In this document: piece after piece, positions 420-57,018 of the stretch
Layout of the letters: each line of letters opens with the position of its first letter
Position numbering within the stretch: position 1 is the first letter of the stretch
Source: Guillardia theta CCMP2712
Lineage: Eukaryota > Protista > Cryptophyta
Direction: 5' to 3'
Length of the DNA stretch: 57,455 bases
NCBI RefSeq assembly: GCF_000315625.1
Contig: NW_005434609.1
Span: forward strand, 419,503-476,957
Notes under the pieces: generated by a model
Seen by the model: only the letters and a program-made list of their open reading frames with translations
Told to the model about the DNA's origin: nothing
Database searches by the model: none
Translations under genes and position numbers: made by a program

Positions 420-10039
<9,620 letters not shown>

Positions 10040-11413
10040 GCCATGGGAGGAGCCTGGAGCAAGGAGGTCTCAACAACTGGGAGCAGTAGACGGGAGGGAA
10101 CTTACTCGTGCGATGTACGTGAAGATCCTTTCACCTCGCTCTCTCTCCTTCCAGACTTTTTGGGCATGAAGGCAGGCAGGTCGATACCCTCCTGTCTTAC
10201 CGCATCCTTCTCGTCTACTCTCCTCCTCCCCTCGTCTCTCAGTCTTGTTGCTGCCTGCCGTTGGCCAAGCTGTCAAGTTTGTCAAAAATCAAGCGGCTGA
10301 GGCGGATCCGCCATCATCGGACCGCGGCCGGGGGCCCGGGGCCCGGGGCCCGGGCGGTCGCCCGGCCCATCGGACCGGGTGGACTGATGCTCGGGGCTAT
10401 TGATCTGACTGGCCCGGCTGGCACTGCCGGGCATGCGATCCCCCCCGAGTTTCTGAAGTAGCACAAACAAGAGAATGTTACCAGAGTTCCAAGTCAAGAT
10501 ACTAGTACATCCCGGAGTCCGAGTCGAGTCCGACATGATGAGGCCGGGCCGTCTGCCGCAGTGCGTCAAGTTCACAGTTATGTTGACGGTGGGCAATAAC
10601 CGTTCAAGGATTGTCTATTCTGAAGAAAATTTTCATGCAGGGCTATTAGAAGCCTCAGGAACTTCGCTGGATGCCGCTCAGGCCGGCGCGGTTGGCGACG
10701 GCCCCCGGCCCCGGCGTTACTTGCCACTCTTGAACTCGGCGCTATCTGACTGACCGCATGTACACCTGCATGTACACAGCCTCAGGCTTTCCTCCGGCAG
10801 GCCCGGCCCCCCGGGCCCCGCGGCCCGGCCAGGCCGGAACGGTGACTCCGCAGGCTCGGCCCGGCCGGCGGGCCGACAGGAGTGAGCCTGCCTCGGATTC
10901 TGGCCTCGGAACCTCGACTCGGAGTCGTTGTTTGTGCTGCCTTTCGAAAAAGGTCCATATATTATTCTGGGGCGGAGTTTTACTATCTATGTCTCCTACC
11001 TTGAGAGTACCCGCTACTGCTATTTGAGTAAAACCAATAAGCCTCCTGATCTGATCTACAGGAGGAAGGGAAGGTGGAGGAAGAGGATGAGGCGGTAGCG
11101 GTGACGGAGGAAGCAGAGGAGGAGGAGGAGGAGGAGGAGGAGGAGGAGGAGGAGGTGATGGTGGTGGTGGTGATGATGATGATGACAACGACGACGACGA
11201 CGACGGGAGGCACAGAGAGGCACGTGGGGAGAGAAGAAGCATCGAAGTCAGGTCTCGAAGTTTGATATGACCACAATAATGATAGCGGAAGAGAAGAACG
11301 ACAAGCCTCGCAGACAGAGACTGAAAGCTTTGGTCTGCTTTCATTGTCCTCTTTAGTTTTTTCGAAAAGCAAGAGAATGTGTTTGGTAGGCTAACCATAC
11401 AACCATCGCAACC

Positions 11414-14400
11414 ATGAAGGAGCTGGTTGGATTGAGCCTTAGCCTATACTTATGGCTAGTGTGTCAAGCATGCGCAGTAATCAACACGAATAAACATAGC
11501 AGCGCAAGAAACTTTGTGTCCTCCAAGACACCACAGAGAGCAGCTGGCTACATACGACCTGTTGGCAAACTGTTGATTTCAGGCAACAAGACGGGCGTTG
11601 GGACAAGAGACCTTCTGGAGTTCTTCGGTAGGTTTGGTACAGTGTTGGACGCCTACGTGCTGAACAATCCCTTCTCGCGATCCAAATGGATCGGCTCGGT
11701 GACATTCAAGCACGAGTCAACAGCACATGACATCTCCGACAAGGTCTCAAGGTTTGGAAGCCAGATGGAGATAAAGGGATGCCCGATCATGATCAACCTT
11801 TGGGGAGAGGAGGAGCAGGAGGAGAGGAGAATAGAGCATTCGCTGGCCTCCGACCAGTACAAAGAGCAACGGCAGAAGATGGAGGATGAAGCCGAAGACG
11901 TCGAGTTCAAGTTTCGGAACCGCTGGACAGACCTGCAGTTGGTCAAAGTTGGAGCAATGGATCCAAAACAATTCTGGAGGAGGCACGGGGGGGATGACGA
12001 TGAGAACGAGTCCTGGGAGAGGAGGCTGATATTCAGGCAGACAAATCTCCCAAACTTCCTGCGAGGATCGAACTTCTCGATCGATGCGGTGAAGAACACT
12101 TCCTCTTTGCTCGACATGTATCTGAACCCAGCGATGGGAATGTCCAAAGTGTGCATGAACGGTTGCAACTTGGTTAAAATATGGAGGGAGAGATTGTCGG
12201 CGGCGGCGGCGGCGGCTCATTTCTTCAACCCTTTCAACCCTGAGGTTGTTCGGAGCATGGCGCAAGAGAAGCTGGGAAAAGGAAGGCTGCCGGAGGGGAT
12301 TGAGATCGAACAGAACGAGGGGTTCACCAAGTTTGCTACGGCAGCGAGCGAAAGGAATGAAACGTCGCACCGCAAGACCAGGACCGATCTCCTGCCCATT
12401 CAAATGATGAAGTCCAAGATCTTGAACCTCCTGCGAGGTAACAACATCCTTGTGGTAGTGGGAGAGACCGGATGTGGCAAGAGTACCCAACTGCCCAAGT
12501 ACCTCCTGCGCATCCTTGGAACGGGGAGAGGCCGAATTGCATGCACGCAGCCCCGCAGAGTCGCAACTGTGTCTCTCGCCAAACGAGTCTCGGACGAGCT
12601 ACATCAAGTGATACTCATGAAGTTCAGAGCTCGCTGGCGCTGACGTGCTGATGTAGAGGGTCGGGCAGCTCGTCGGCTACTCCATCAGGTTTGAAGAGGT
12701 CGTCAGCGATTGGACCAGGATCAAGTTCATGACGGATGGGATACTCATCAGGGAGGTCATCGGTGACCCCTGGCTCGAGCAGGAAAGACCGCCCCTTGCT
12801 AGAAGGATAACGTCCCAACTCTTCCATCCCTCCTTTTCATCGATTCATTCGCGATTTCTTGTCTCCTCCTCCTCCTCCTCCTCCTCCTCCTCCTCCTCCT
12901 CCTCCTCCTCCTCTTCCTCCTCCTCCTCCTCCTCTTCCTCCTCCTCCTATCTGATTCATTTTCCTGTCCATGTCTCTTTGCTTGCATCCATCTCCCTGTG
13001 CACCTCGCCTGTGCGGTCTGTGCCTTCGCCTTGAAACTTGTTCTTCTCCCTTGCTGTGCTGTGTTGACTGCGATCACAGTATTCTGCTGTGATCATGGAC
13101 GAGGCGCACGAGCGGAGTATGCATACAGACATCCTCTTTGGTGTCTTGCGCAAGGTTGCGACGAGGAGGAAAGATCTCAAGGTGATTTGTCTTCGTTCTT
13201 TCCCTCTGCACGTAATGCTCTCTGTTGTACTTGCCTTCTACTAGATCATTGTGACTTCTGCCACCATGGACGCTCAAAAATTCTCTTCTTACTTCTGGAA
13301 CGCTCCGATCATCGAGGTGCCGGGGAAAACTTTCCCGGTCGAAATCGACTACACAGCATGTCTGGTGGAGGACTATGTCGAGAGGGTGAGACCAGAGGTA
13401 CTGCGGAGCTGCTGGACGTCTGATGGAGATGGTGCAGGCGATCTCCTCTGTGACCGACATCCATCTAGGAGAGTCGGAGGGGGACATCCTGGTGTTCATG
13501 CCGGGACAGGAGGAGGCAAGTTGTAACGGGGTCAGAGAGTCTTGGCTCACCTCCCCTGCTGGCCGCAGGTTGAGAGCACGAAGTTCTGGCTGGAGAACAG
13601 AATCGACTACCTCAACAGCACCGGAATTGACGTTCCTCCCCTTGAGATCATCCCCGTCTATGGCACCTTGCCAGCTGAGCTGCAGCTGAAGATGTTCAAA
13701 TCAGGTTGCCCGAGGAGAGACGAGGATGTGGGGCTGAAGAGAGTCTGTCAGACCAGGAAGGGAGGAGGAGAGTGATCATAGCAACCAACATCGCAGAAAC
13801 TTCTCTCACTGTCGACGGCATCGTGTTTGTGATTGATTGTGGATACTCCAAGATAAAGTGCTTCGACCCAACCCTGGGTGAGTGATGATGAGCTAGCGAA
13901 AGATTTTGTTGGTAGAAAAGAGGAGGAATCTGACTTGACAGGCCAGGTATCGACGCCCTGCTAGTCGTTCCTGAGAGCAGGGCGAACGCGAAGCAGGTCG
14001 ATCGCAAGTTTCGTCTGCTCATGTGAGGGTCGTGAAGTCACTTGCAGAGAGCTGGAAGAGCAGGGAGGACGAGACCAGGAAAGTGCTTCAGACTGTTCAC
14101 CGAAGAGGTCAGGAGCCGTCAGCCGCGCCAGCTCGCTGACTTGGCCGACGCAGTCGCTGAAGTTGGAGATGCTGGAGGCTCCAGTGCCGGAGATCCTGAG
14201 GAGCAACCTGGGCAACGTAATTCTCCTCCTCAAGTCGATGAACATCGGCAACCTGCTGCAATTTGACCTGATCGACAACCCGCCCAAGGAAAACATCTTG
14301 AATGCCATGTCTCTGCGCCTCCTCTTACATCCCCCTTCCTCTTACCCTCTGCGGTGCCCAGGTATCAACTTTGGATCCTCGGGGCCCTGAACACCGAGGG

Positions 14401-38750: not shown

Positions 38751-39913
38751 GCAAAACATGAACAACAATCATCTTCTTGGTCGGATATTCACGCAGAAGG
38801 ATGACAAAGGATCTAGAAACATTGCAGAAGTCTTGAGGATCATATTCGCTAACGGCTTTCGCAATAACAAGTTGTACGAATCAATGCTGTATGTTTACGA
38901 AAAATTGTTCCGAGCGAGCAACAACACAAGAGACCAGGGGAGGAAGAGAGGATCGTCCTATCAAAAGTGAGGCTCAGATCATGCGAAGTCGATGTATAAC
39001 GTTGGGGACATGAGATTGAACTTGTATGCGCAAGAGGGGCAGAATGCAGGATGCAGGAGGGCAGGTCGGTCAGTGCAGTCGGTTCTGGGGAGAACCTTTC
39101 TAATCCGTTTTCCGCGAAGAGAATAGGCATGCTCGGATTTTCTAGAATATTTAAATCTACTTGACTATTGTTCAAATATTTATTTACATTTGTTTATAAT
39201 TTTTAAATGTTTTGTGGAAATAAACTTTTCCTAAAGACCCTAGTGAAAAAGCAAACACCCTCTTTAACGGCACAAACCTACTGGGGCCGACAATTTTTAC
39301 TTAACGACACTATGGCGAACATCCGGGTGCAAGTCAAGTTCCGAAGTTCCGGGGGTGGCGGGCCCGCCGAGTTGCCGCAGTGCCGGGAGCCGGGGCCCGG
39401 GAAGCGGCGGTCACGTTGGCGGTGGGCCCTGAGTTACGGTCCCCGGCACCGTACGCCGTGACGGCAAAACTTTCAGCAACGGTGTAAAAATCAGTGACAC
39501 TGTGGACGGTGAAGGCCCGGCGTGGCAGCTGAGCCTGAGTGTGCGGTCACCGGGCGCGGCCGCCAGGCCACGCCGGGCCGCCGCGGCAGCCTGTACTGTG
39601 AGTGACTCTGTGATCTTCTTTACTCAAAGTTAAGTTAAAAATCAGTACGAGGACAATCAGGAGACTTTACTCAAAGTTAAGTTAAAAAGCCGGGGATAGT
39701 GACTCGTGTGAGTAAAGAACACCACTCAGCCGAGTGGCATGCCACGGTGAGTTGTCGGGCAAAAAATTGAATTATTGGACTTTTGTCCAGCTAAAAACCT
39801 TTCCAGGAAGAGATCGGTGATGAGTAAAGGTTAGTACGGTCGAGCCAAGAAATGGACCTAGGCTGTATAATGGTCATACAAGTTGACTAAAGTTGTTGCC
39901 CTCTCACTTCGAC

Positions 39914-46470: not shown

Positions 46471-46965
46471 AAGAAGGGGCAGCGCGTTCTCGCCAGGTAA
46501 GGAGCTTTACTCAAAGTTAAGTTAAAATCAGTACGAGGACAATCAGGAGAGTCGAGGAGAGAACCGGGTAGGAGGCAACCGAAGGCCAAGGTGAGGAGAG
46601 GCAACTCTTCTGACTGAGTACTCGCGCGCCTCTTAAGAGCACTAGGATTGCTTGGTTAGGAGCGCCGGTTTCACGCAGCGCCGGTTATTTCACGAAGCTG
46701 CAAGCAAAGGTTTGGTATAATGATGAAAACGAAGCGTTTTCCTAACAGCAGGACAGCTCAGGCTTGCAAGCCTTGAAGGCTGTAGAGGCCGGGATGCACC
46801 CCGACGCTATCGCAGAAGCCATCCGCTCGACATGTCAGCAGGCGCGACGGGAGCGCATTGTCTGGATGGAGCGATGCATCCAGAGATTGGTTTATGCAGC
46901 AGATGGAGGAAGCTAAGAAGATGAATCGCCTCGGTGTATGTCAACTTCGAAGAGATCGGACTGAT
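46471..46965 (+). repeat. Deletion-riddled mosaic copy of the 50.0-52.6 kb module
   Basis: Blocks match 51931-51954, about 52228-52279, 52598-52611 and, in colinear pieces, 50016-50514. Confidence 0.85.
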
Positions 46966-47562
46966 CCGACTCAGCATATTGGGATTAGGGGCGCTGCAGC
47001 GGAATATGAAAATCCAGGATTGTTGATTAGCGCTTTTCATGACCGGTACTTTTGACTGCACTTATACGGGTACTTGCCCTCGCACAGAAGCACCCTTTTA
47101 CCCCCATTATCATTGAGTAATAGGGGGTGGGGTATTTGAATTGGCATGGGCGGAAACCTTCAAGACCACCCCACTCCCCTCGACACTTTTAACAGACGAC
47201 ATGTTTTAAGGCTGCGAAAACGTTTTAGAAAGATACGAATAATCATAAAATAAATATAAATTGGAAACACAGTAGAAAAGACTTAGAAATACAATACAAA
47301 TGTTCGAATTTTTTTGGTACCTGATTCAATTTCAATGTGTACTGTGTTTCTGGGTTTGGTACAAGAATGAAGCCACCGGGTCCTTTTCTGCTAGTGCTTT
47401 CACAAAACGGGGGTAGGGTAGTCCCCCCTGTCCCCCACCCATCCCTATTTCAGGGATTTGAATTTTTCCCAGAGGCAAGTTGCCACGGCACAAGTTGAGA
47501 CACATGCCAGTGTGATCTTGAAATTTGGCTTAAGATTTTGAACATTGAAACGTTGATTAATC

Positions 47563-49977
47563 ATGTCAGGACCAAATCTATCAAATTCGTCATCCCCACC
47601 TTTGCAAGGAAGTTCCTGCAGACGAAGCAAGCAAACCATTACCCTGGATGATCATCGGAGGAATTGCTCACCTGGGAGTCTCTGGCAAGTCGAGCGGGCT
47701 TCCTCTATAAACAAGGAAAATGGCAGGGACAACCTAATGTCAATGCTTGCCTGAAGGCCATAGGTTTGAAAAGAGATCATTTGTAAAATGCAAATCTTTG
47801 TAACACCTGGGATGCAGGTAGATCTCCTGAGTTGTTGCTTCGAATCTTACAAGAGTCTGAGGAGCAGAGAGGTTTTAGTCATCATGTGGATGAAGCCAAA
47901 CGCGAAGGGATTATTTCCCCTCACTCCGATGAACCAATTCCGGCTTGTTACGATGCTATCAAAGATCCAAAAGTGAAAACAGCGATTCTGAAGAAGATCC
48001 AGGGTGACACTGATGAGGCCCCCTTCTAGATGTGGTCACGAAGAAGGTAGATCGGCACTTTGCGTCACACAAGGCCAATTGTCGAGTGAAATGGGGACAT
48101 TTTGCTGATCTATTTCACCACAAGTGTGAGGATGACTCTGGACAGGAAGCGGCCGAGGGGCCTCGAAAGCAGAAGAAGTGCAAAACTTCGAAATACGATA
48201 GCCTTACGTTCTTTGAAGGCATTCTGAGCAGTCAAGCCTTCAAGACAGTCATAAAAAATGAACTTGCCACGAATAAGGAGCTTCAAAACTGCCTGAAACC
48301 TGCGGTCAGGCAAATGATGCCGAGCGCGCGAGAGGCAGCAGTTGCCCTGACAGCAAACGGTATAACGAAATCGCAGTACCAAGGATTCTGTCGTGCAAAC
48401 GATAGCATGGCTGGCTGCTTTATTCCCATGCCAAAAATATCACGGGTTACTACTTCGGAGTGGAAGAGAAGCATGCGTTGTGCCAAAGATTCAAACTGTT
48501 CTGTTTGCCAGATGGAACACATTGCCTCGGCCTTCTTCAACTTGTCGAAGAGTGGATTGATATCTTCAAACTTCACGGGAAGCATCGCCTTGTTATCACG
48601 ATCAACTATGACTGTGCAACAATGACATTCTCGGCTGGCAATCCTAAGAAGGCAACTGAAGTCACCATTTCCATTTTCCCTTACGGCGTAGACTGTTCGA
48701 GGAAAGAATGGAAATTCTGGCAAAAACTCGTTAGAAGTTCATCGTGCCTTATGACGATGTCCTACATTCCATATGGAGACAGTCCTGAGGTTTTTCAGAG
48801 GACTGTGAGAGCTGGATATGATGAAGTTATTGATCTCTTGAAGGAGAAAGGTATTCACATCTACAACAATCAAGCAGTCGGGGGACTTGAAAAGACATTA
48901 GCAGGTGGTCAGCCTGACAAGATTATCCAAGTGGAGTTCGTCAAGAGATCTGATTTGCAAGGGCAATGGAATATGTACGGCATTGGTGGAATGACCGACA
49001 AGGAGGGCAAGTTCTGTCTCCACTGTAACGAACTCCTCAAAGATCACAAGGCTGGGAAATATTTCGAAATCGAAACAATCGTTTCCAACGAAACTCTGTC
49101 CCAAGTTTGTGAAAGACTGGACATGTCTACGGAGGGCATCAAGTTGTTAAACAGAATGTTGAAAAGTCCCGATGCTTTCGAACGAATGTTCGACACCTCG
49201 GAAGGAGAATTCCAAGAGTTATTAGCTGAAGAAAATCAGACTCGACTCCAAAATTATCTGCAAGACCCAGAGTTGATCATGGAGATGGGAACAAAGATCC
49301 CAGTGATTCGTTTGATCGAAATGGACAGATGCAGCGGCGAAGCAGCTTGTTGCTCGTTTCATGCTTTCATAAGAACGACGAACATGATTATTGGATGCCT
49401 TCAAGAGAAAGCGGCGCAGATGAGAAAGGTCGCGACAGTCAATTTTCAATTACAAGAGCAAGGAGTGAATGTCCAATTCACCGAGAAGTCTCATAGCAGG
49501 AAGCTGAACGGTGAACAATGCGACAGATTCGTCAAAAAGGCATCAGTCGTCATCAATACCCTTTACAGCGATCCTGCCTATGCAGATGACAGAGAACGAT
49601 GGATAGGCGTAATGGAAGAATGGGACCTCTTAAGCACCATGCTGAAGTGTCAAGAACTTGACAAACTTGAAAACCTGGATTTTCAAATCGGTTTAACCCT
49701 TCCTGTGAGGCTACGAACGCTTATGCTGAATATTATCGACCTGGTTGGAGATCCTAGTTTGATGCAGTCATTCTACTTCCACTCGCTCCTTGTTGGGCAC
49801 ATTGGCCAACAATTCTACGACCGTTTGGTACAATATGGGATCCCTCTTGGATTACTGAACATCAGTAACGTCGAAAATCGCCACAGACATTTTGGAAGAC
49901 CTTCGTATTTGCAAGTCCAACCAGAGGTAAATGCATTCGTCTCAAAAAAAAAAAACGTCGAAGGGTTTAGGGTTTAG
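47563..49977 (+). mobile_element. RAG1/Transib-like DDE transposase; N-terminal part frameshifted (possible pseudogene)
   Basis: AVALTANGITKSQYQGF (RAG1 LAIRVNTFLSCSQYHKM); ITINYD, D at 48610 (~D600); VKRSD, D at 48952 (~D708); FCLHC; FHAFIR; KLNGEQCDRF (RAG1 RMNGNFARKL); FYFHSLLVGH; LGLLNISNVEN, E at 49873 (~E962). Confidence 0.8.
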
Positions 49978-49982
49978 GGTTT
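49944..49982 (+). repeat. A12 tract followed by (AGGGTTT)3 telomere-type repeat
   Basis: AAAAAAAAAAAA-CGTCGA-AGGGTTTAGGGTTTAGGGTTT; this tract supplies the TAG that ends the transposase ORF. Confidence 0.9.
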
Positions 49983-52203
49983 GCCAGGTGTAGGGGAAGC
50001 CGCCAGGGCGCCAAGGAAGCTGCAAGCGAGAGGTTTGTATACTTCAAATAGCTTTCTAAGTATGGTTCTTCAGTATGATGAAAATGTTCGCAACCTGCTG
50101 TATCGGAGATCATGCCAATACACGCAGAGCGGACTTGTGGATGCCTCTGTCCTCGAAGCTGATCTCGTCGAGAGGGTGAAGAGCTTCGCGAAGCGTTATC
50201 CTAACAGCAGGACAGCCCAGGCTTGCAAGGCTGTGGAGGGATGCACCCCCGACGCTATCGCAGAAGCCATCCGCTCGACATGTCAGCAGGCACGACGTAA
50301 GCTTCTACAAGAAGCAATGACTGGATGGAGTGACGCATCCAGAGAGTGGTTTATGCAGCAGATTGAAGAAGCCAAGAAGGAGAAGGTCGAGACATACACC
50401 GCCTCAGCAGGCAACGAGGTGACTTCCTTCATCTCCATGACTCTCCTGGGCATCTCCTCGGTGTATGTCAACCATGAAGAGAAGCTGAAGAAGAAATTCG
50501 AAGAGATCGGACTGGTCGTAGACTCAGTGCAAGAGAGTAAAGCAATCATGTGGAAGGCTCCGTATAGACCCGAGATAGCGAGTGCTGGAGAGATCCCGGT
50601 GACTGTTTCCTTCCTCCGCAATGCACAAGCGGAGAAGCTCTGGCAGGGAAGAGAGGACTTCGCGATCGATGGTCGCAAGTTCACAGCTGTACATGTGAGC
50701 ATCGTGCACGATCGATCTTTCAAGATTCGAGCCAAGAGAGGACCCTGGGGCAAAGGGGGCAGCTTGGCAGAGCTGACCCACCTGCTAACCTTGGGCGGCA
50801 TGACAACGGCTGAGATAGCTGCCGTCTATCGCTATCAGCTGCTGCGCCAGTCCCTTGCAGCGGTCCAACTCCAGCCGCTGGCAGGCATGCTGGTCGCTGG
50901 GGCGCCAGGACAGCAAGTCCACAAAGGCTTAGGTCAGAAAGGCTTCGTCGCTGTAGGGGCCAACGTCATCTGGAGACAGAGGGAGGTGGAGTGGATCGTC
51001 TCCTCGAGCTACCCAGAGGCGAATGATACAGCATTTCGAGCTTTCCGAGAGAGCGAAGCGATGGAGGGAGTACACCTGACTCTGTTCAGCGAGGACCCGA
51101 AGATCAGAGAGGCGCTCGCAGTCGAGTTGACAGCTGATCGCTTTGTGTCCAGAAATAAGTTGAAGAAGGCATCAAGGATGCAGAAGAAGGCAGGCGGCAA
51201 GGACGGCAAGGAGATCAAGATCATCATCAAGTCGACGGCGGCATCTGGTCGCTTCACGAGGAAGGAGATGGAGGGGCTGTGCAACGGCGGCAACACGTCC
51301 ATCGCAAGAGTCAAGAGAGTCTTGTTGGAGATCGCTAACAGGCTCGAGATCAAAGTTGAAGGCATCGACATGGAGGAGGATTTGAACACCAAGTCCTGGA
51401 ACGGGTCCAAGCTATGCATCCTCCTCGGCTCCACGGAGGATGCTCGACGCATGATGAAGGAGCAGCCCTTCTATCTCGAAGGCGCAGCAACCAAGCTCGA
51501 AGCAGTCGGCTTCGACAAGGAGCCTGAGGCGGCTGGTCAGCGGGGCACCAGCGACGCAGCGCAGCGACAGGAGGAGAGCGAGGGAGAGTGGCTGGAGTTT
51601 ACAGACCTGGAGAGGATCACAATGGAGGCAGCATCTCCGTCAAGCCAAGAGGACATGCAGCTTGTCAGCGAGCTGTCAGCAGTCATCGAAGATGCAGCTT
51701 CTTTGAACGAGGCGGGGACGAGCGAGCCAATCAAGCTGGTCCTGGACAAGGCCGTTGGCAACCTCCACGACACCTTCTACTCTCCGGGGAGCCTGGAGTT
51801 CATGTCGCTGGGAGAGTGGGCGAAGACGCCAGAGGAGCAGGGAGTGGGACGCAACGTTCTCAAGGAGAAGCTGGGGGAGTGGCTGCAGAGCAAGCGCTGG
51901 ACTCGCGTGCAAGGAGAGAGCAAGAAGGCAAGGAGGGGCAGCGCGTTCTCGCCACGGGCAACGGCAGCTGCTGAGCTTGAGCAGGAGGCGGAGAGCGACG
52001 ACATAGAGCGTCGATCTCTTAGCTTCCTGTTCATAGCACTGAGTAAATTCGCAGAGATGCATGTGCTGGCCTGCTCGCTGAAGGTGGACAAGAAGGACCG
52101 ACTGCGGGTGGAGATGAGGGAAGATGACGAAGAAGAGGAAGACATGGAGGAAGAGCAAGGCGAGGGCGAGGAAGAAGACGGGGCGAGCCCGTACCGAGCT
52201 TGA
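49981..52203 (+). CDS. Intronless 740-aa ORF, same frame as the transposase; RRM-like segments and acidic tail (possible gag/ORF1-like protein)
   Basis: Long intron-free ORF in an intron-rich genome, with no ATG for the first ~27 codons. Beta-alpha-beta-beta-alpha-beta-like patterns (MTLLGIS...EKLKKKFEEIG...VTVSF...AEKL...AIDGRKF; KLCILLGSTEDARRM...FYLEG). A partial second copy lies at 46.7 kb. Confidence 0.6.
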   Translation: MPGVGEAARAPRKLQARGLYTSNSFLSMVLQYDENVRNLLYRRSCQYTQSGLVDASVLEADLVERVKSFAKRYPNSRTAQACKAVEGCTPDAIAEAIRSTCQQARRKLLQEAMTGWSDASREWFMQQIEEAKKEKVETYTASAGNEVTSFISMTLLGISSVYVNHEEKLKKKFEEIGLVVDSVQESKAIMWKAPYRPEIASAGEIPVTVSFLRNAQAEKLWQGREDFAIDGRKFTAVHVSIVHDRSFKIRAKRGPWGKGGSLAELTHLLTLGGMTTAEIAAVYRYQLLRQSLAAVQLQPLAGMLVAGAPGQQVHKGLGQKGFVAVGANVIWRQREVEWIVSSSYPEANDTAFRAFRESEAMEGVHLTLFSEDPKIREALAVELTADRFVSRNKLKKASRMQKKAGGKDGKEIKIIIKSTAASGRFTRKEMEGLCNGGNTSIARVKRVLLEIANRLEIKVEGIDMEEDLNTKSWNGSKLCILLGSTEDARRMMKEQPFYLEGAATKLEAVGFDKEPEAAGQRGTSDAAQRQEESEGEWLEFTDLERITMEAASPSSQEDMQLVSELSAVIEDAASLNEAGTSEPIKLVLDKAVGNLHDTFYSPGSLEFMSLGEWAKTPEEQGVGRNVLKEKLGEWLQSKRWTRVQGESKKARRGSAFSPRATAAAELEQEAESDDIERRSLSFLFIALSKFAEMHVLACSLKVDKKDRLRVEMREDDEEEEDMEEEQGEGEEEDGASPYRA

Positions 52204-52227
52204 GCTGAGCTCAAGGTAAGGAGAGAA

Positions 52228-52518
52228 GGTAGGAGGCGACCGAAGGCCAAGGTGAGGAGAGGCAACTCTCCTGACTGAGGCTGAGGAAGCTGAATGGAGG
52301 AGGAGTAGGTGGCGACCGAAGGCCAAGGTGAGGAAAGGCAACCCTCCTGACTGAGGCTGAGGAAGCTGAATGGAGGACGAGTAGGTGGCGACCGAAGGCC
52401 AAGGTGAGGAGAGGCAACTCTTCTGACTGAGGCTGAGGAAGCTGAATGGAGGTAGAGTAGGTGGTGACCGAAGGCCAAGGTGAGGAGAGGCAACTCTCCT
52501 GACTGAGGCTGAGGAAGC
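52228..52518 (+). repeat. 76-bp tandem repeat x~3.8
   Basis: YGACCGAAGGCCAAGGTGAGG recurs at 52237, 52313, 52389 and 52465. Confidence 0.95.
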
Positions 52519-52609
52519 CAAGAGAAGACAGCAGAAGTAGAGAGTAGAAAGACGCCTCAGAAGCAGGGTTCGCATTATAGGCCGTGTACTCCCAATGCTC
52601 GCGCGCCTC

Positions 52610-52671
52610 TTTAGGGTTTAGGGTTTAGGGTTTAGGGTTTAGGGTTTAGGGTTTAGGGTTTAGGGTTTTAG
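52610..52671 (+). repeat. Interstitial telomeric repeat (TTTAGGG)8 + TTTTAG
   Basis: Eight perfect Arabidopsis-type units directly visible. Confidence 0.97.
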
Positions 52672-52932
52672 ACTAACTTGCCAACTTCCTCTCGGCATGC
52701 TGGTGGCAGCGCCCGCAGCACTTCGTTCGAAATGAGGTCAAGTCCTGCAGCCTTTCGTCTCGGCGCCGAGGCGAGCCAGACATCAATCTCTCCCGGTGCC
52801 AGGGGTCTGGTGATTTCCTGTTGTTGTCTCCTTGAAAGCTGCACCCCCTCAGGCGGTGTGATCCGTCTTGGGGCCACGGTTGTGAACGACTTACATTTTG
52901 TGCAGTACGGGGTAATCCCTCCCCCTCCGATG

Positions 52933-55900
52933 GTTGGTAAGTTAGTCAATGCAGCCCTAGAAGGCAAAGCTGAGGTTCTCAACAAGACAGCGAGAGTACG
53001 CCTCCTGCCAAAAAATCAATTCTGTCACATTCTCGAAAACATGCGGCCAATATGCGTCATGTCAACGCTTACTCGACTAGTTCAGGCAATCCTGGCGCAT
53101 CGTCTGAGTAAGACAGTAGAAGCAAATAACGTCCTCACAAACTTCCAGGAGGGGTTCCGTCCAGGCAGAAGCACAAGTCGGCAGGCTCATCGACTGATCT
53201 CGATCGTAGAAGAAGCAGAAGAGGCCAAAACGTCCCTCATTCTCTTGTACCTGGACTTTGCGAACTTCTTTAACAATGTGGCGATCGAGGTGGTCGAGCA
53301 GGCAATGAACAGCCTAGGCTTCCATCCTGAAGACATTAGAACTGTGATAGCCTGCAACAGTGGAGTCGAACTGCAAATACAAACAAACGAGTTCAACACA
53401 GGGAAAATACCTCTAATGATCGGGCTGCCACAAGGTGGAGCAAGTAGCCCACAACTGGCCAACTTGGTGCTATGCATCCTCTCTAGGCAATTGGACAAGT
53501 GCAGCACAGGAACAACAAACAACCTGTCCTTCGCCGATGACATGGTACTCATCGCACACACGATGAAAGAAATGCGAGAGTTGGTAGCAGTGGTGGATTC
53601 CTTCTGCAAATGGTCAGGACTGCAAATCAACAATAAGAAATCAGAGATAACCAGCTTCGACTATGCTCGCAAGGGAGAGGTTCCTGGTGCGAACAAAATA
53701 ACGGTCATGGGGGAACCTGTCGAAGCCCTACCGGCTACTAAACCGTTCAAATATCTCGGCTATCGCATCTCTCTGTGGAAGGAAGAAAGACGAAGAATAA
53801 AGGGCTGCCCTTTCACTTGGGGAGAACGAGCATACGTCTTTGAAAAAACCAAAGAACTGATCAACAATATCAGCTCGTCGAGTTATACTCCTGCGCAAAA
53901 ATTTTACCTGGTGAAAGTTGGAATTCTCAACGTCTTTCGCTACTCCGCAGTCATGACTGGATGGACTTGGCGAGACCTACAAGAATTAGATCAACTGTGG
54001 ATACGAGCTTTTAAAAAAGCGTTAGGCCTAAGCAAAAGTACAGGGAATGGTATATTCTACCTGCCAACAGAGAATGGAGGGCTGCAGGTCCCTCATCCTG
54101 CCCCAATCCTAGGGAGAGCAGCGTTACGATACATCGAACGAGAAGTGAATAGTAAGCATGGTGGAGACATCCAAGATAGACTGATATCTAAACTCAGAAA
54201 CTCGTGCGTAAAATGGGGGTGTCAAACAATGCTCGAGCTCCAAAGAGAAATGAATTTTCGAACTATGGAGCGGGATGTGGTGCGGGGACCCGAAGCTTTA
54301 GCAGTCTGGCTGACGGAAAAACTAAACACGAGGATCAGCTGGGCCCATATAGAAGCAGGTCACCTACCTGGAAGCATCTCCCTCCTTCATAGGATGGAGG
54401 ATATGGTGGCAAACTTGAACGACTGTAACAGACCACAAGGCTGGACGACCTTCCAAGCCTTATGGAGGCAACTCCCGAAACTCCAATTCTCCTTGCTACG
54501 CAATGTACGACCTATCGCGGACGAAGAACTGCATTTGCCAAGGAAGCTCTGGCCTTTCCCAAGGCAACGCGAGGAGGCGGAGGGGATCGTAATGCAATTG
54601 CTACAAGAAAATGTCATCTGGGTAAGCAGCGTCAACAGAGCATCGGGAACAAAGAGGAAAAGACGAGAGGTTGTCACACAGGATAGTGCTACAACCCGAA
54701 AACGAAAGTCACACCCGCAATCAGAGGAGGACCGGGAGGAGACATCCAAAAAGCATCGGGAAGCAGCAGAAGAGAGAAGGCCACACCCAGCTCATGCAAA
54801 CACAAGATCCCTCATGGCTAAATTACTAGGCAATCTGGATCAACAGGAACACCTTATCCTAAAAGGTAAGGAAAGTTTCAAAATCAAGGGCGACATAGCA
54901 ATCATGGACCGGCCCAGAAGTCACACGGGCCAAGAACAAGACATCAAAGAAGCCGAACCTTCCCTTCGCTCGGCGCCATTTGCGAGGAAAGAAGATGAAG
55001 ATGGCGCCAAGAACCCAGAGAAGACAGAGATCCTACTGCAAATTGCTAAGCATATCAGCAAAAAACACAACAGCTTACTCAACTCGCAAGCTTGGTGGGA
55101 ACATCTAACCACCGCCATGGCTGAAATTCGAGATAGACAACAAGGCCTTCCGCTGTCGTACGAATTTCTAGAACACTTGGGGATGCTCGCTGAAACAAAA
55201 CAGTTCAGCAACTGGCCCACCCTCTATCACCCGACAATCCAGGCCGCAACAGACAGCTTGCAGGACGACGAGGTTCGACGTGAAATAATATGGATCGACC
55301 AACAGGAGCAATACCTCAGCCACGCCGCATGCGAGTCCGGAACAATCATGATCGGATGGAACCAAACTTGCTTCAGGAAAGAAATCCCTGACGGCTTCAT
55401 GCTAGTCGGTAAGGTACCTAAAGGATCAGAAATATGTTACGCTGCAAATTTCTGGAGGACGGGCGATCGGAGCCTCAGGAAGTCACAAGACGACCTGATT
55501 GTCTACTGCAAAGAGTCGGAACAAGAGAGAATAATTGTCCAACTCACAGTACACCTGATCCCTGAACGGGAGGAGCTACAAGAATACCGAAGGAAGCAAA
55601 ACGAAAACTATCAAGCCTCGGCCAAACAGGAGAAGAACAGGAACCACGTGTGGTCCGCAATCCACGGCGACATATCACGAAACAGGAAGGGTCGATCAAT
55701 GTCGATAGGATACAGCACGCAAGAAAAGGAAGGAGAGCAGGAACGCGGAGCGATCAAGATACACGGAAAATGTAGCGTCATCAGAGCACATACCATCGCA
55801 CTCTGCATACTCCTACAAGCGATTTGGGAACAAAGAGGCAAACAGAAAACAATCAGGAAAATCTTCGTCCTCTTTAAATCAACCCGAATGCATCGCTTTC

Positions 55901-57018
55901 TTACGGACACCCTCAGATGGTCTACCATGCAGTATGAAGACGAGCTCGTATACGACTTGGCAGGAAGACTGCAGGAATGCCTGAGCAAATTTCAGCGGGA
56001 AGGCATTGAGATCAACCTCTCTCTGATCGCAGACCACACCGTAGTGCAAGAAGCTGCAGAGGAAGCTCGCAAGGGAAAATCCTCCTTCTCCTCCACGTGG
56101 GAAAGGGCCCTCATCGACAGCGACTTGGGATTCTGCATTGCAGACGAAGAGAACTTCAAGCCGGGGATGGATCGACTGAAAATATGGGATAAGATAATCA
56201 GAGAAGAACAACTGGAACTGAGGAGGAAAGAAGCCCCCCTTACCTTGACGGAAACCTTTCTCCTGGAACCACAAGTGGGCAGAAGGATCCTAGGTCGAGC
56301 CTTACAGAGGTGTCGAGGATCAGTACTTCGGACAGCCATCCAAGCTATTACCTGGTCAGCACCTACGAGGAAAAAGCTGTTCCAGTGGAAGAAGACGACA
56401 TCCCCCTGTTGCCCATGGTGCGAAGGCAGGGAAGAAAGCTGGGTGCATATCCAGCTAGCCTGCAAAGAATTTGAGCTCATGATCGCTTTGGCACACAACA
56501 GAGTAATGGAGACAATCAAGGGATGCCTGACAGAAAGCTGGAAGAAGAAAAGTGTTGAACAGGAGAGTTGGTGGCAAACGCCAATCAACTCTATGACAGG
56601 GCTAGGACTGACTGCACCAGAGCACGGCAATCTTATACCAGATGGGCTCTGCTACTTCAGAGGGAGCAATCGCATTGTGCTGGTGGAGATAGCAAGAACT
56701 TCAGAGTTCACGGGCGAGGGAAGCAGTCTGGCAAACCTGAAAGCAAAGTTTCAGGAGAAAGAACAGAAATATGCAGCACTGCGGGCAGAGATGACAAGTA
56801 GGAGCGACAACACAGAGGTCATACAAGCCACGTTCATTGCAGGAGTGAGAGGCAGTATTATGGAGCGGGAATGGACCACAAATTTCCGGAACTTGCTCAT
56901 GGACGAGGATATGATTGACAGAGCCATGACCAAGATAGTCATCCAGCTGCTCGAAGTGCAACACATGCTGTGGACCTCAAGGAGACGAGGAGACACGACC
57001 AACAGAGAACAAGCATGA
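52933..57018 (+). CDS. Reverse transcriptase - unknown domain - degenerate RNase H - CCHC - RLE polyprotein (true sense portion of ORF 52678-57018)
   Basis: NMRPICVMS, QEGFRPGRS, LYLDFANFFNNV, GLPQGGASSP, LSFADD, GLQINNKKS, FKYLG, LPTENGGL; CPWC..EESWVHIQLAC; AHNRV; IPDGL..VLVEIAR; EKEQKY. Confidence 0.93.
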   Translation, partial: VGKLVNAALEGKAEVLNKTARVRLLPKNQFCHILENMRPICVMSTLTRLVQAILAHRLSKTVEANNVLTNFQEGFRPGRSTSRQAHRLISIVEEAEEAKTSLILLYLDFANFFNNVAIEVVEQAMNSLGFHPEDIRTVIACNSGVELQIQTNEFNTGKIPLMIGLPQGGASSPQLANLVLCILSRQLDKCSTGTTNNLSFADDMVLIAHTMKEMRELVAVVDSFCKWSGLQINNKKSEITSFDYARKGEVPGANKITVMGEPVEALPATKPFKYLGYRISLWKEERRRIKGCPFTWGERAYVFEKTKELINNISSSSYTPAQKFYLVKVGILNVFRYSAVMTGWTWRDLQELDQLWIRAFKKALGLSKSTGNGIFYLPTENGGLQVPHPAPILGRAALRYIEREVNSKHGGDIQDRLISKLRNSCVKWGCQTMLELQREMNFRTMERDVVRGPEALAVWLTEKLNTRISWAHIEAGHLPGSISLLHRMEDMVANLNDCNRPQGWTTFQALWRQLPKLQFSLLRNVRPIADEELHLPRKLWPFPRQREEAEGIVMQLLQENVIWVSSVNRASGTKRKRREVVTQDSATTRKRKSHPQSEEDREETSKKHREAAEERRPHPAHANTRSLMAKLLGNLDQQEHLILKGKESFKIKGDIAIMDRPRSHTGQEQDIKEAEPSLRSAPFARKEDEDGAKNPEKTEILLQIAKHISKKHNSLLNSQAWWEHLTTAMAEIRDRQQGLPLSYEFLEHLGMLAETKQFSNWPTLYHPTIQAATDSLQDDEVRREIIWIDQQEQYLSHAACESGTIMIGWNQTCFRKEIPDGFMLVGKVPKGSEICYAANFWRTGDRSLRKSQDDLIVYCKESEQERIIVQLTVHLIPEREELQEYRRKQNENYQASAKQEKNRNHVWSAIHGDISRNRKGRSMSIGYSTQEKEGEQERGAIKIHGKCSVIRAHTIALCILLQAIWEQRGKQKTIRKIFVLFKSTRMHRFLTDTLRWSTMQYEDELVYDLAGRLQECLSKFQREGIEINLSLIADHTVVQEAAEEARKGKSSFSSTWERALIDSDLGFCIADEENFKPGMDRLKIWDKIIREEQLELRRKEAPLTLTETFLLEPQVGRRILGRALQRCRGSVLRTAIQAITWSAPTRKKLFQWKKTTSPCCPWCEGREESWVHIQLACKEFELMIALAHNRVMETIKGCLTESWKKKSVEQESWWQTPINSMTGLGLTAPEHGNLIPDGLCYFRGSNRIVLVEIARTSEFTGEGSSLANLKAKFQEKEQKYAALRAEMTSRSDNTEVIQATFIAGVRGSIMEREWTTNFRNLLMDEDMIDRAMTKIVIQLLEVQHMLWTSRRRGDTTNREQA

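Follow-up and report, generated by a model that had tools for sequence, protein, structure and literature searches.

Evidence for a multi-copy algal DNA element with a RAG1/Transib-type transposase core and a likely LysM-type insert, represented by a frameshifted remnant in Guillardia theta

Overview

The stretch of Guillardia theta CCMP2712 DNA analysed here (the window, 57,455 nucleotides) probably carries a damaged representative of an algal DNA element that occurs in multiple copies. The element encodes a DDE enzyme predicted to have the RAG1/Transib fold, RAG1 being the protein that assembles human antibody genes, and likely bearing a LysM-type domain; in a fuller copy, the gene of this enzyme faces a second gene of non-kelch type. 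The window copy itself is frameshifted and 3′-truncated. An earlier reading of the letters alone (the sequence-only reading) had proposed a RAG1/Transib-like recombinase core in a cryptophyte. The type of the core is upheld by its predicted fold and its conserved residues, but the locus holds a transposon remnant and not a host recombinase. What is unusual about the element had been missed, namely a LysM-like insert and a second gene in convergent orientation.

Extent, gene structure and lesions of the window copy

The remnant occupies positions 46978–49963 (all features of the element in the window are on the + strand) and comprises the left part of the transposon and most of the transposase gene. 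It matches positions 89–3062 of L001, a metagenome contig that served as the reference for the window lesions, with 93% nucleotide identity over 2998 columns, and matches to contig pieces of the runs X11 and X7 start at 46980 and 46982. The start codon of the transposase gene is the ATG at 47564, 5′ of the region flagged earlier. Exon 1 (47564–47763), whose N-terminus resembles those of P0006 and P0007, is followed by a GT-AG intron of 54 nt (47764–47817) with a stop near 47785. Three raw RNA reads from two starts (run X24), which may derive from another copy, skip this intron; splicing it out restores an open frame, the junction is that of the gene model P0006, and at the corresponding position L002, which belongs to the second subfamily, carries a GT-AG stretch that contains an in-frame stop. 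Exon 2 (47818–49963) is broken and lacks about 50 last codons, and P0007 follows it in tblastn through three frames at 87–91% identity. The approximately 50 lost C-terminal residues include the last helix of the structural model (residues 805–837), aligned to the C-terminal domain of RAG1. The 523-codon ORF of the window (48406–49977) equals, from its residue 190, the first 297 residues of the Guillardia theta model GUITHDRAFT_142617, and the identity stops where that model splices.

Four frameshifting lesions separate the window from L001, and all of them are insertions: 5 bases within exon 1 (47653–47657), 2 bases at 48019–48020, 8 bases at 48450–48457, and an A-run expanded by 5 at 49944–49948 (12 A vs. 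7 A in L001). The insertions at 47653 and 48450 consist of mixed letters, and the other two are situated in single-base runs. One additional base at 47785 falls within the intron, and in-frame differences from L001 are present besides the frameshifts. A check of the reads at the frameshifts, as had been advised, found the 2-base insertion missing in L001 and in contigs of the three runs X1, X7 and X11, and the 8-base insertion missing in L001 and in a contig of one run (X1); none of the window's own insertions was seen in any run contig aligned to the window. The 2-base and 8-base insertions are thus copy-specific lesions or assembly errors and not recoding, and real lesions are favoured because the 5-base and 8-base insertions are mixed letters. 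Programmed recoding was considered and ruled out, since other copies are without the insertions. The frame breaks reported earlier near 48030 and 48450 correspond to the insertions at 48019 and 48450, whereas the break near 47800 is the intron, and the recoding suggested there is unneeded. The insertion at 47653 also creates a palindrome of 10 bases, of a kind that excision can leave as a footprint.

The match to L001 stops at 49963; there, telomere-type TTTAGGG repeats (49963–49976) interrupt the element, and an unrelated high-copy element follows. The poly-A at 49944 was rejected as a retrocopy tail, because L001 shows a run of 7 A at this place, past which the match continues for 8 bases. 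Judged from its sequence, the remnant in the window is a dead transposon copy, unable to make the full enzyme; it would have been disabled by small insertions and cut by a telomere-repeat-associated element. L001 has different lesions, namely a stop at 2563–2565 and a broken second gene. Over 494 codons, the window and L001 differ synonymously in 42 and non-synonymously in 39, which shows purifying selection in the past of the family, and not at the window locus. RNA depth is near zero over 48392–49761 in the one raw RNA run used, of which 6/100 was read, a depth that does not speak for silence of the gene, and the run search listed no RNA run.

Several other features were observed in the window. 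The ORF at 49978–52203 (+; 741 codons) has no Pfam match, carries TTTAGGG repeats on both sides and is followed by 76-base tandem repeats, and its first 300 bases have very deep coverage in all four runs; it may be ORF 1 of a retroelement associated with telomere repeats, or else belong to an element of its own. At 46471–46974, directly next to the left boundary of the transposon, there are degenerate, scrambled fragments of the 49978–52600 element (81–96% identity). The 1448-codon ORF at 52672–57018 (+) starts right after eight TTTAGGG repeats (52610–52665) and has a reverse transcriptase match (RVT_1, E 1.7e-35) together with the motifs C-x2-C..H..C (56410) and PD..E (56638); it likely represents a non-LTR retrotransposon with a restriction-like endonuclease. 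A short high-copy repeat (39618–39688 and 46505–46550) occurs three times in the window and has extreme depth in DNA-type runs. Farther upstream, the ORF at 11390–12643 (+) has an RRM match (E 8e-5, above cut-off) and then the start of a P-loop domain, and looks like an ordinary host gene.

Relatives and conserved residues of the transposase

Open-frame relatives of the transposase include P0007 (838 aa), which is 91% identical to the window over residues 294–794, P0008 of G. theta (826 aa), which is 43% identical to P0007, and P0020. A profile search of 1.84 billion representatives returned 31 matches at E ≤ 0.001, and the named family members (clusters of 18 of the 28 new matches were looked up) belong to Guillardia theta, Hanusia phi and the green alga Cymbomonas tetramitiformis. 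In a quick tree without an outgroup, made from 19 family members selected by hand and showing lineages only, there are several deep lineages, two of them pairing G. theta with Hanusia. Pattern searches, which find close relatives only, gave no relatives in viral contigs or prokaryotic genome contigs, and viral structures gave only a weak hAT-type match (E 1.4e-3).

The motifs listed in the sequence-only reading are present, ITKSQY in the frame 48017–48625 and the rest in the ORF 48406–49977. Their agreement goes beyond chance: a profile made from 12 distant relatives alone gives 216 bits for the window ORF and −0.5 for the reversed ORF, a control that is not fully independent, since the 12 relatives came from searches started with this family. 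The proposed D/D/E and zinc ligands are kept in the window and near-invariant in the family. Specifically, D344, D400, D458, C479, C482, C591, H594, H734, H740 and E765 (P0007 numbering) are near-invariant in the 33-member alignment, across family proteins that are only 21–43% identical.

The first predicted catalytic Asp (D344; 48610–48612) follows the region of model strand 336–349 and is D in 21 of the 25 spanning rows, with 4 gaps; the second (D458; 48952–48954) is D in 23/25 rows (2 gaps), and the predicted catalytic Glu (E765; 49873–49875) is E in 19/23 rows. Another conserved Asp, D400 of the DSPE motif (48778–48780; D in 21/24 rows, 3 gaps), likely corresponds, by its position, to the second acidic residue in the DEDE tetrad of RAG1. 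The predicted zinc ligands are provided by a CxxC (49015–49026; C in 22/25 and 24/26 rows, the rest being gaps) and an HxxxxxH (49780–49800; H in 21/24 rows per position). Between them is situated a CxxH (49351–49362; C and H each in 24/27 rows, 3 gaps), whose His likely corresponds to RAG1 H795. The D-D-E spacing is 114 and 307 in P0007 numbering, compared with 108 and 254 for RAG1 (PMC13056857). The two His of the pair, which also sets the family apart from Transib, have 5 residues between them in the window and the cryptophyte branch and 4 in Cymbomonas, the former being one more than in the published motifs of the CACTA-Mirage-Chapaev-Transib (CMCT) group, C(2)C and H(3-4)H. At the N-terminus, a motif of about 35 residues (47658–47763) is kept in cryptophyte lineages (P0007, P0008, P0045, P0050, P0025) and has no Pfam family match; it is a candidate DNA-end-binding domain.

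Predicted fold of the transposase

The AlphaFold2 model of P0007, built from the 33-member alignment with no templates, has a pLDDT of 75 and a pTM of 0.68; the core is mostly above 85, and residues 1–233 are largely below 50. Foldseek against the PDB gave 49 matches at E ≤ 0.001, all of those listed being RAG1, BbRAGL or HzTransib (best 8.7e-10), and the next family, the P element, followed at E 1.8e-2. The structural check proposed in the sequence-only reading, which allowed for another fold coming out best, thus places RAG1/Transib at the top, at the level of the fold. VIA comparison of the model gave Z 18.6 with RAG1 (rmsd 3.9, 426 aligned), 18.1 with HzTransib (rmsd 4.3, 418 aligned), 17.1 with BbRAGL, 12.5 with the P element and 8.4 with Hermes, and a Foldseek-free search of 48,161 chains agrees with the RAG1/Transib fold. 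Residues 249–831 of the model align to residues 461–1004 of mouse RAG1, and the identity to RAG1 is 10–13% in structural alignments. For P0008, the top Atlas clusters score 0.96 and 0.95 and have RAG1_RNase_H in 38% and 28% of their members; a Cymbomonas protein gave a weaker result, with top matches at 0.92 without a family and RAG1 at 0.90. Pfam and PDB sequence searches gave no match to RAG1, Transib or any transposase family, and Pfam gave none to Transposase_21 or related families. A RAG1/Transib-type fold of the transposase core is supported by the predicted model.

LysM-like insert between CxxC and CxxH

The segment from CxxC to CxxH measures 110–180 residues in the family; the CxxC-to-H segment of RAG1 has about 65 residues (727/730 to 795, converted from pig numbering). 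Within the family segment, a predicted LysM-like β-α-α-β domain, interrupted by a helical insertion some 45 residues long, is located at 49063–49308, as indicated by Pfam, LytE, the model and OsCEBiP. The model forms a strand (495–499), two helices (506–512 and 517–526) and a second strand (572–576), with a block pLDDT of 86–96. Pfam LysM (PF01476) scores 15.6 bits (E 0.016, below cut-off) on a hand-picked piece of the window, 22.4 bits on the homolog P0033, above the Pfam cut-off of 20.9, and 13.4 on P0039; at E ≤ 0.05 it is found in 1 of the 33 aligned members. Among PDB sequences, the family profile matches only a LysM repeat, that of LytE (E 0.12), and the LysM protein OsCEBiP of rice aligns to model residues 477–585 with Z 4.6, within background. 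Furthermore, four Cymbomonas members are named 'LysM domain-containing' in UniRef. Five partly independent and individually weak lines, which fall on one position, make it likely that a LysM-type domain sits after the CxxC in the model.

Bacillus LytE and rice OsCEBiP share the β-α-α-β topology and give weak sequence and structure matches at the matching position. Unlike in these proteins, the LysM-like domain here is single-copy, split by the helical insertion and placed inside a nuclear transposase. In RAG1, ZnC2 (719–791) projects toward RAG2 (PMC13056857); among Transibs, the portion of the zinc domain that binds RAG2 is variable (PMC9435367). From the order of the motifs, we infer that the insert occupies the RAG2-facing position. 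Most likely, the LysM-like module would have a structural or docking role rather than a role in chitin binding.

Convergent second gene

The sequence-only reading had seen no convergent RAG2/kelch gene. This holds for the window, which has lost this part of the element with the second gene cut off, and also as far as kelch is concerned, but L001 does have a convergent gene. On its minus strand, downstream of the transposase, P0052 (433 aa) maps in four pieces at 3963–3289 with 38–62% identity, and the stop of this second gene is 82 bases from the transposase stop, in a tail-to-tail arrangement. P0051 and P0052 were found by a search with one second-gene piece, and the second-gene proteins have about 350–450 aa. 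One X11 contig covers both gene ends, and contigs of two runs have approximately 526 extra bases where L001 has 3438–3447. The second gene lies directly beside the transposase in one locus only, L001, and is broken there. The second-gene proteins P0053 and P0056 have longest contigs of 6258 and 4658, lengths shared with the transposases P0010 and P0012 of the other subfamily; indirectly, the pairing of transposase and second gene appears to predate the split of the two subfamilies.

At the level of the sequence, the GG doublet is missing in 3/3 second-gene proteins checked, Pfam matches at E ≤ 1 include neither kelch nor RAG2 families in 4/4, and there is no PDB sequence match. The AlphaFold model of the second protein is unreliable (pLDDT 32), and its best matches are small SH3/Tudor-type barrels at background level (Z ≤ 6.0); the protein may resemble Tudor/BAH domains, to which no family match points. 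Complex prediction for the transposase core and the second protein was uninformative, with a score of 0.00 and an uncertain fold of the partner. The second gene would most likely be an accessory factor of the element, and possibly a chromatin-binding one.

Element ends and mobility

The left boundary is common to four sequences within 5 bases (window 46978–46982). It has no CAC start and no CACAATG-like heptamer; Transib ends start with a CACAATG heptamer (PMC1131882). A CA dinucleotide is located 3–5 bases to the left of the boundary in the window and in L001. The search for intact copies with terminal inverted repeats, suggested earlier, succeeded for the open frames, found in P0007, P0008 and P0020, but not for the repeats: L001 yielded no terminal inverted repeat, with scores at shuffle level; the right end of the element is probably beyond the contig, and run contigs extend past L001 on that side. 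No target duplication was seen either, no locus showing both ends. For these two reasons, cut-and-paste mobility of the element is something that we infer. Several lineages of the family are present in G. theta, with near-identical copies on different contigs. Contigs of two runs also join across L001 1781–3051 and 1568–1617, with few other letters between, and these joins are internally deleted copies of the element.

A non-coding stretch at 47279–47527, mapped via L001, is kept between L001 and L002 of the two subfamilies, whose proteins are 43% identical. Comparison of the approximately 250 bases 5′ of the start codon gave a score of 77, which 0/200 shuffles reach (maximum 41), and the stretch likely contains a promoter or subterminal binding sites. 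Nearby, an internal 11-base inverted pair (47264–47274 and 47340–47350) contains the heptamer-like word CACAGTA; its right arm (47340–47350) is partly kept in L002, and GTAC words cluster nearby in both subfamilies. The heptamer-like inverted pair at 47268 and 47340–47346 was rejected as the element ends, being internal and having flanks that are inverted and not direct repeats.

Classification and alternative readings

The family is best treated as its own lineage in the CMCT group. It is not filed as Transib or RAGL because the RAG1 fold is common to the wider CMCT group; for other CMCT lineages, PMC12730594 reports the same motifs and an HHpred match to RAG1. Compared with the CMCT lineages named there (EnSpm/CACTA, Mirage, Chapaev, Plavaka, ESTA, Lanisha), the present family has no Pfam Transposase_21 match. 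As regards the 5′-CA..TG-3′ termini and 2–5 bp duplications of the group, what was seen here is the CA 3–5 bases outward of the left boundary. The main text of PMC12730594 does not contain 'LysM'.

An ordinary Transib (e.g., of subgroup I) that has acquired a LysM insert and a passenger gene, with CAC ends and 5-bp duplications, is unlikely but keeps an appreciable chance. HzTransib (PDB 6pqx) ties structurally with RAG1 (Z 18.1 vs. 18.6) and the CA near the shared boundary in the window and L001 would suit it, yet the boundary itself starts neither with CAC nor with a CACAATG-like heptamer, profiles of RAG1 and Transib give no sequence match, and the top structural match cannot discriminate, since other CMCT lineages have no solved structure among the matches. 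Transib also differs from the present family in the LysM-like domain of the long CxxC-to-CxxH segment, the convergent second gene, the one intron and the ends, for which no CAC heptamer was found here. A true RAGL transposon, with a RAG2 that has diverged beyond recognition as the convergent gene, is the least probable of the readings, hardly to be expected at all. RAG1 and RAGL (ProtoRAG/BbRAGL, AanRAGL of Aureococcus) are the best structural matches, RAG1 being at the top (Z 18.6) with BbRAGL at 17.1, the tail-to-tail layout of L001 is that of RAG1/RAG2 and ProtoRAG, and a partner of 350–450 aa has a suitable length. Against these points, the GG doublet and the kelch/RAG2 families are missing from all partners checked (3/3 and 4/4), and the region of ZnC2 that faces RAG2 is filled by the LysM-like insert. 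No RSS-like ends were found, and the N-terminal 240 residues, where a nonamer-binding domain would lie, are poorly modelled here.

It is also very unlikely that the cell has an unbroken form of the window copy, the breaks being assembly errors or recoding, in which case it could be a domesticated host recombinase. The retained catalytic residues, the two insertions in single-base runs and the lack of the 2-base and 8-base letters from all run contigs aligned would agree with intactness, but the mixed letters of the 5-base and 8-base insertions, the replacement of the 3′ end by telomeric repeats and another element, and the separate lesions of L001, as decaying copies should have, argue for decay. 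Intact open frames exist elsewhere (P0007, P0008), and the purifying-selection signal (42 synonymous/39 non-synonymous) belongs to the past of the family and not to this locus. The multi-copy algal element with its own two-gene arrangement, present in the window as a broken remnant, remains the reading that we consider probable.

Proposed mechanism and implications

By analogy with RAG1/Transib, an intact enzyme of this family would dimerise, bind the element ends and cut with the metal site of D344, D458 and E765 through nicking and hairpin formation, after which the element would be pasted elsewhere. The CxxC and the His pair would hold one zinc, and the surface by which RAG1 meets RAG2 would be where the LysM-like module sits.

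Relatives of RAG1/Transib from outside the animals have been published before, and their rarity there had been overstated earlier: RAGL is present in Aureococcus, and Transib-like proteins are found in bacteria, fungi and plants (PMC9435367). The LysM-bearing two-gene form was not found in the literature searched. In this literature, which comprises neither Repbase nor subscription journals, no paper joining 'Guillardia theta' and 'Transib' was found, no paper among the matches listed combines LysM with RAG1/Transib or DDE transposases, and the supplement text of PMC9435367, picture pages aside, mentions none of Guillardia, Hanusia, Cymbomonas and LysM. The lineage is apparently undescribed so far, and Repbase may contain the family.

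A further and improbable proposal is that a two-component transposase of RAG1 type arose a second time in the algal elements, independently of RAG2: a captured LysM domain would have rebuilt the partner surface, and the convergent gene would provide a chromatin-reading cofactor with a small Tudor/BAH-like barrel. If this were true, unrelated parts would take over the function of RAG2 with its PHD finger.

Being dead, the copy in the window is itself hardly useful; the open frames of P0007, P0008 and P0020 make the enzyme expressible and assayable, either alone or with its partner, and either with its insert or lacking it. The family extends the transposase group to cryptophytes and a prasinophyte. 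Models of the origin of RAG hinge on the gain of a partner by a one-gene Transib and on the RAG2-binding zinc region, and the deep algal lineage, with a likely different domain at this site and another convergent partner, may offer a natural comparison for asking whether the surface of the zinc domain is a repeated site of partner or domain capture.
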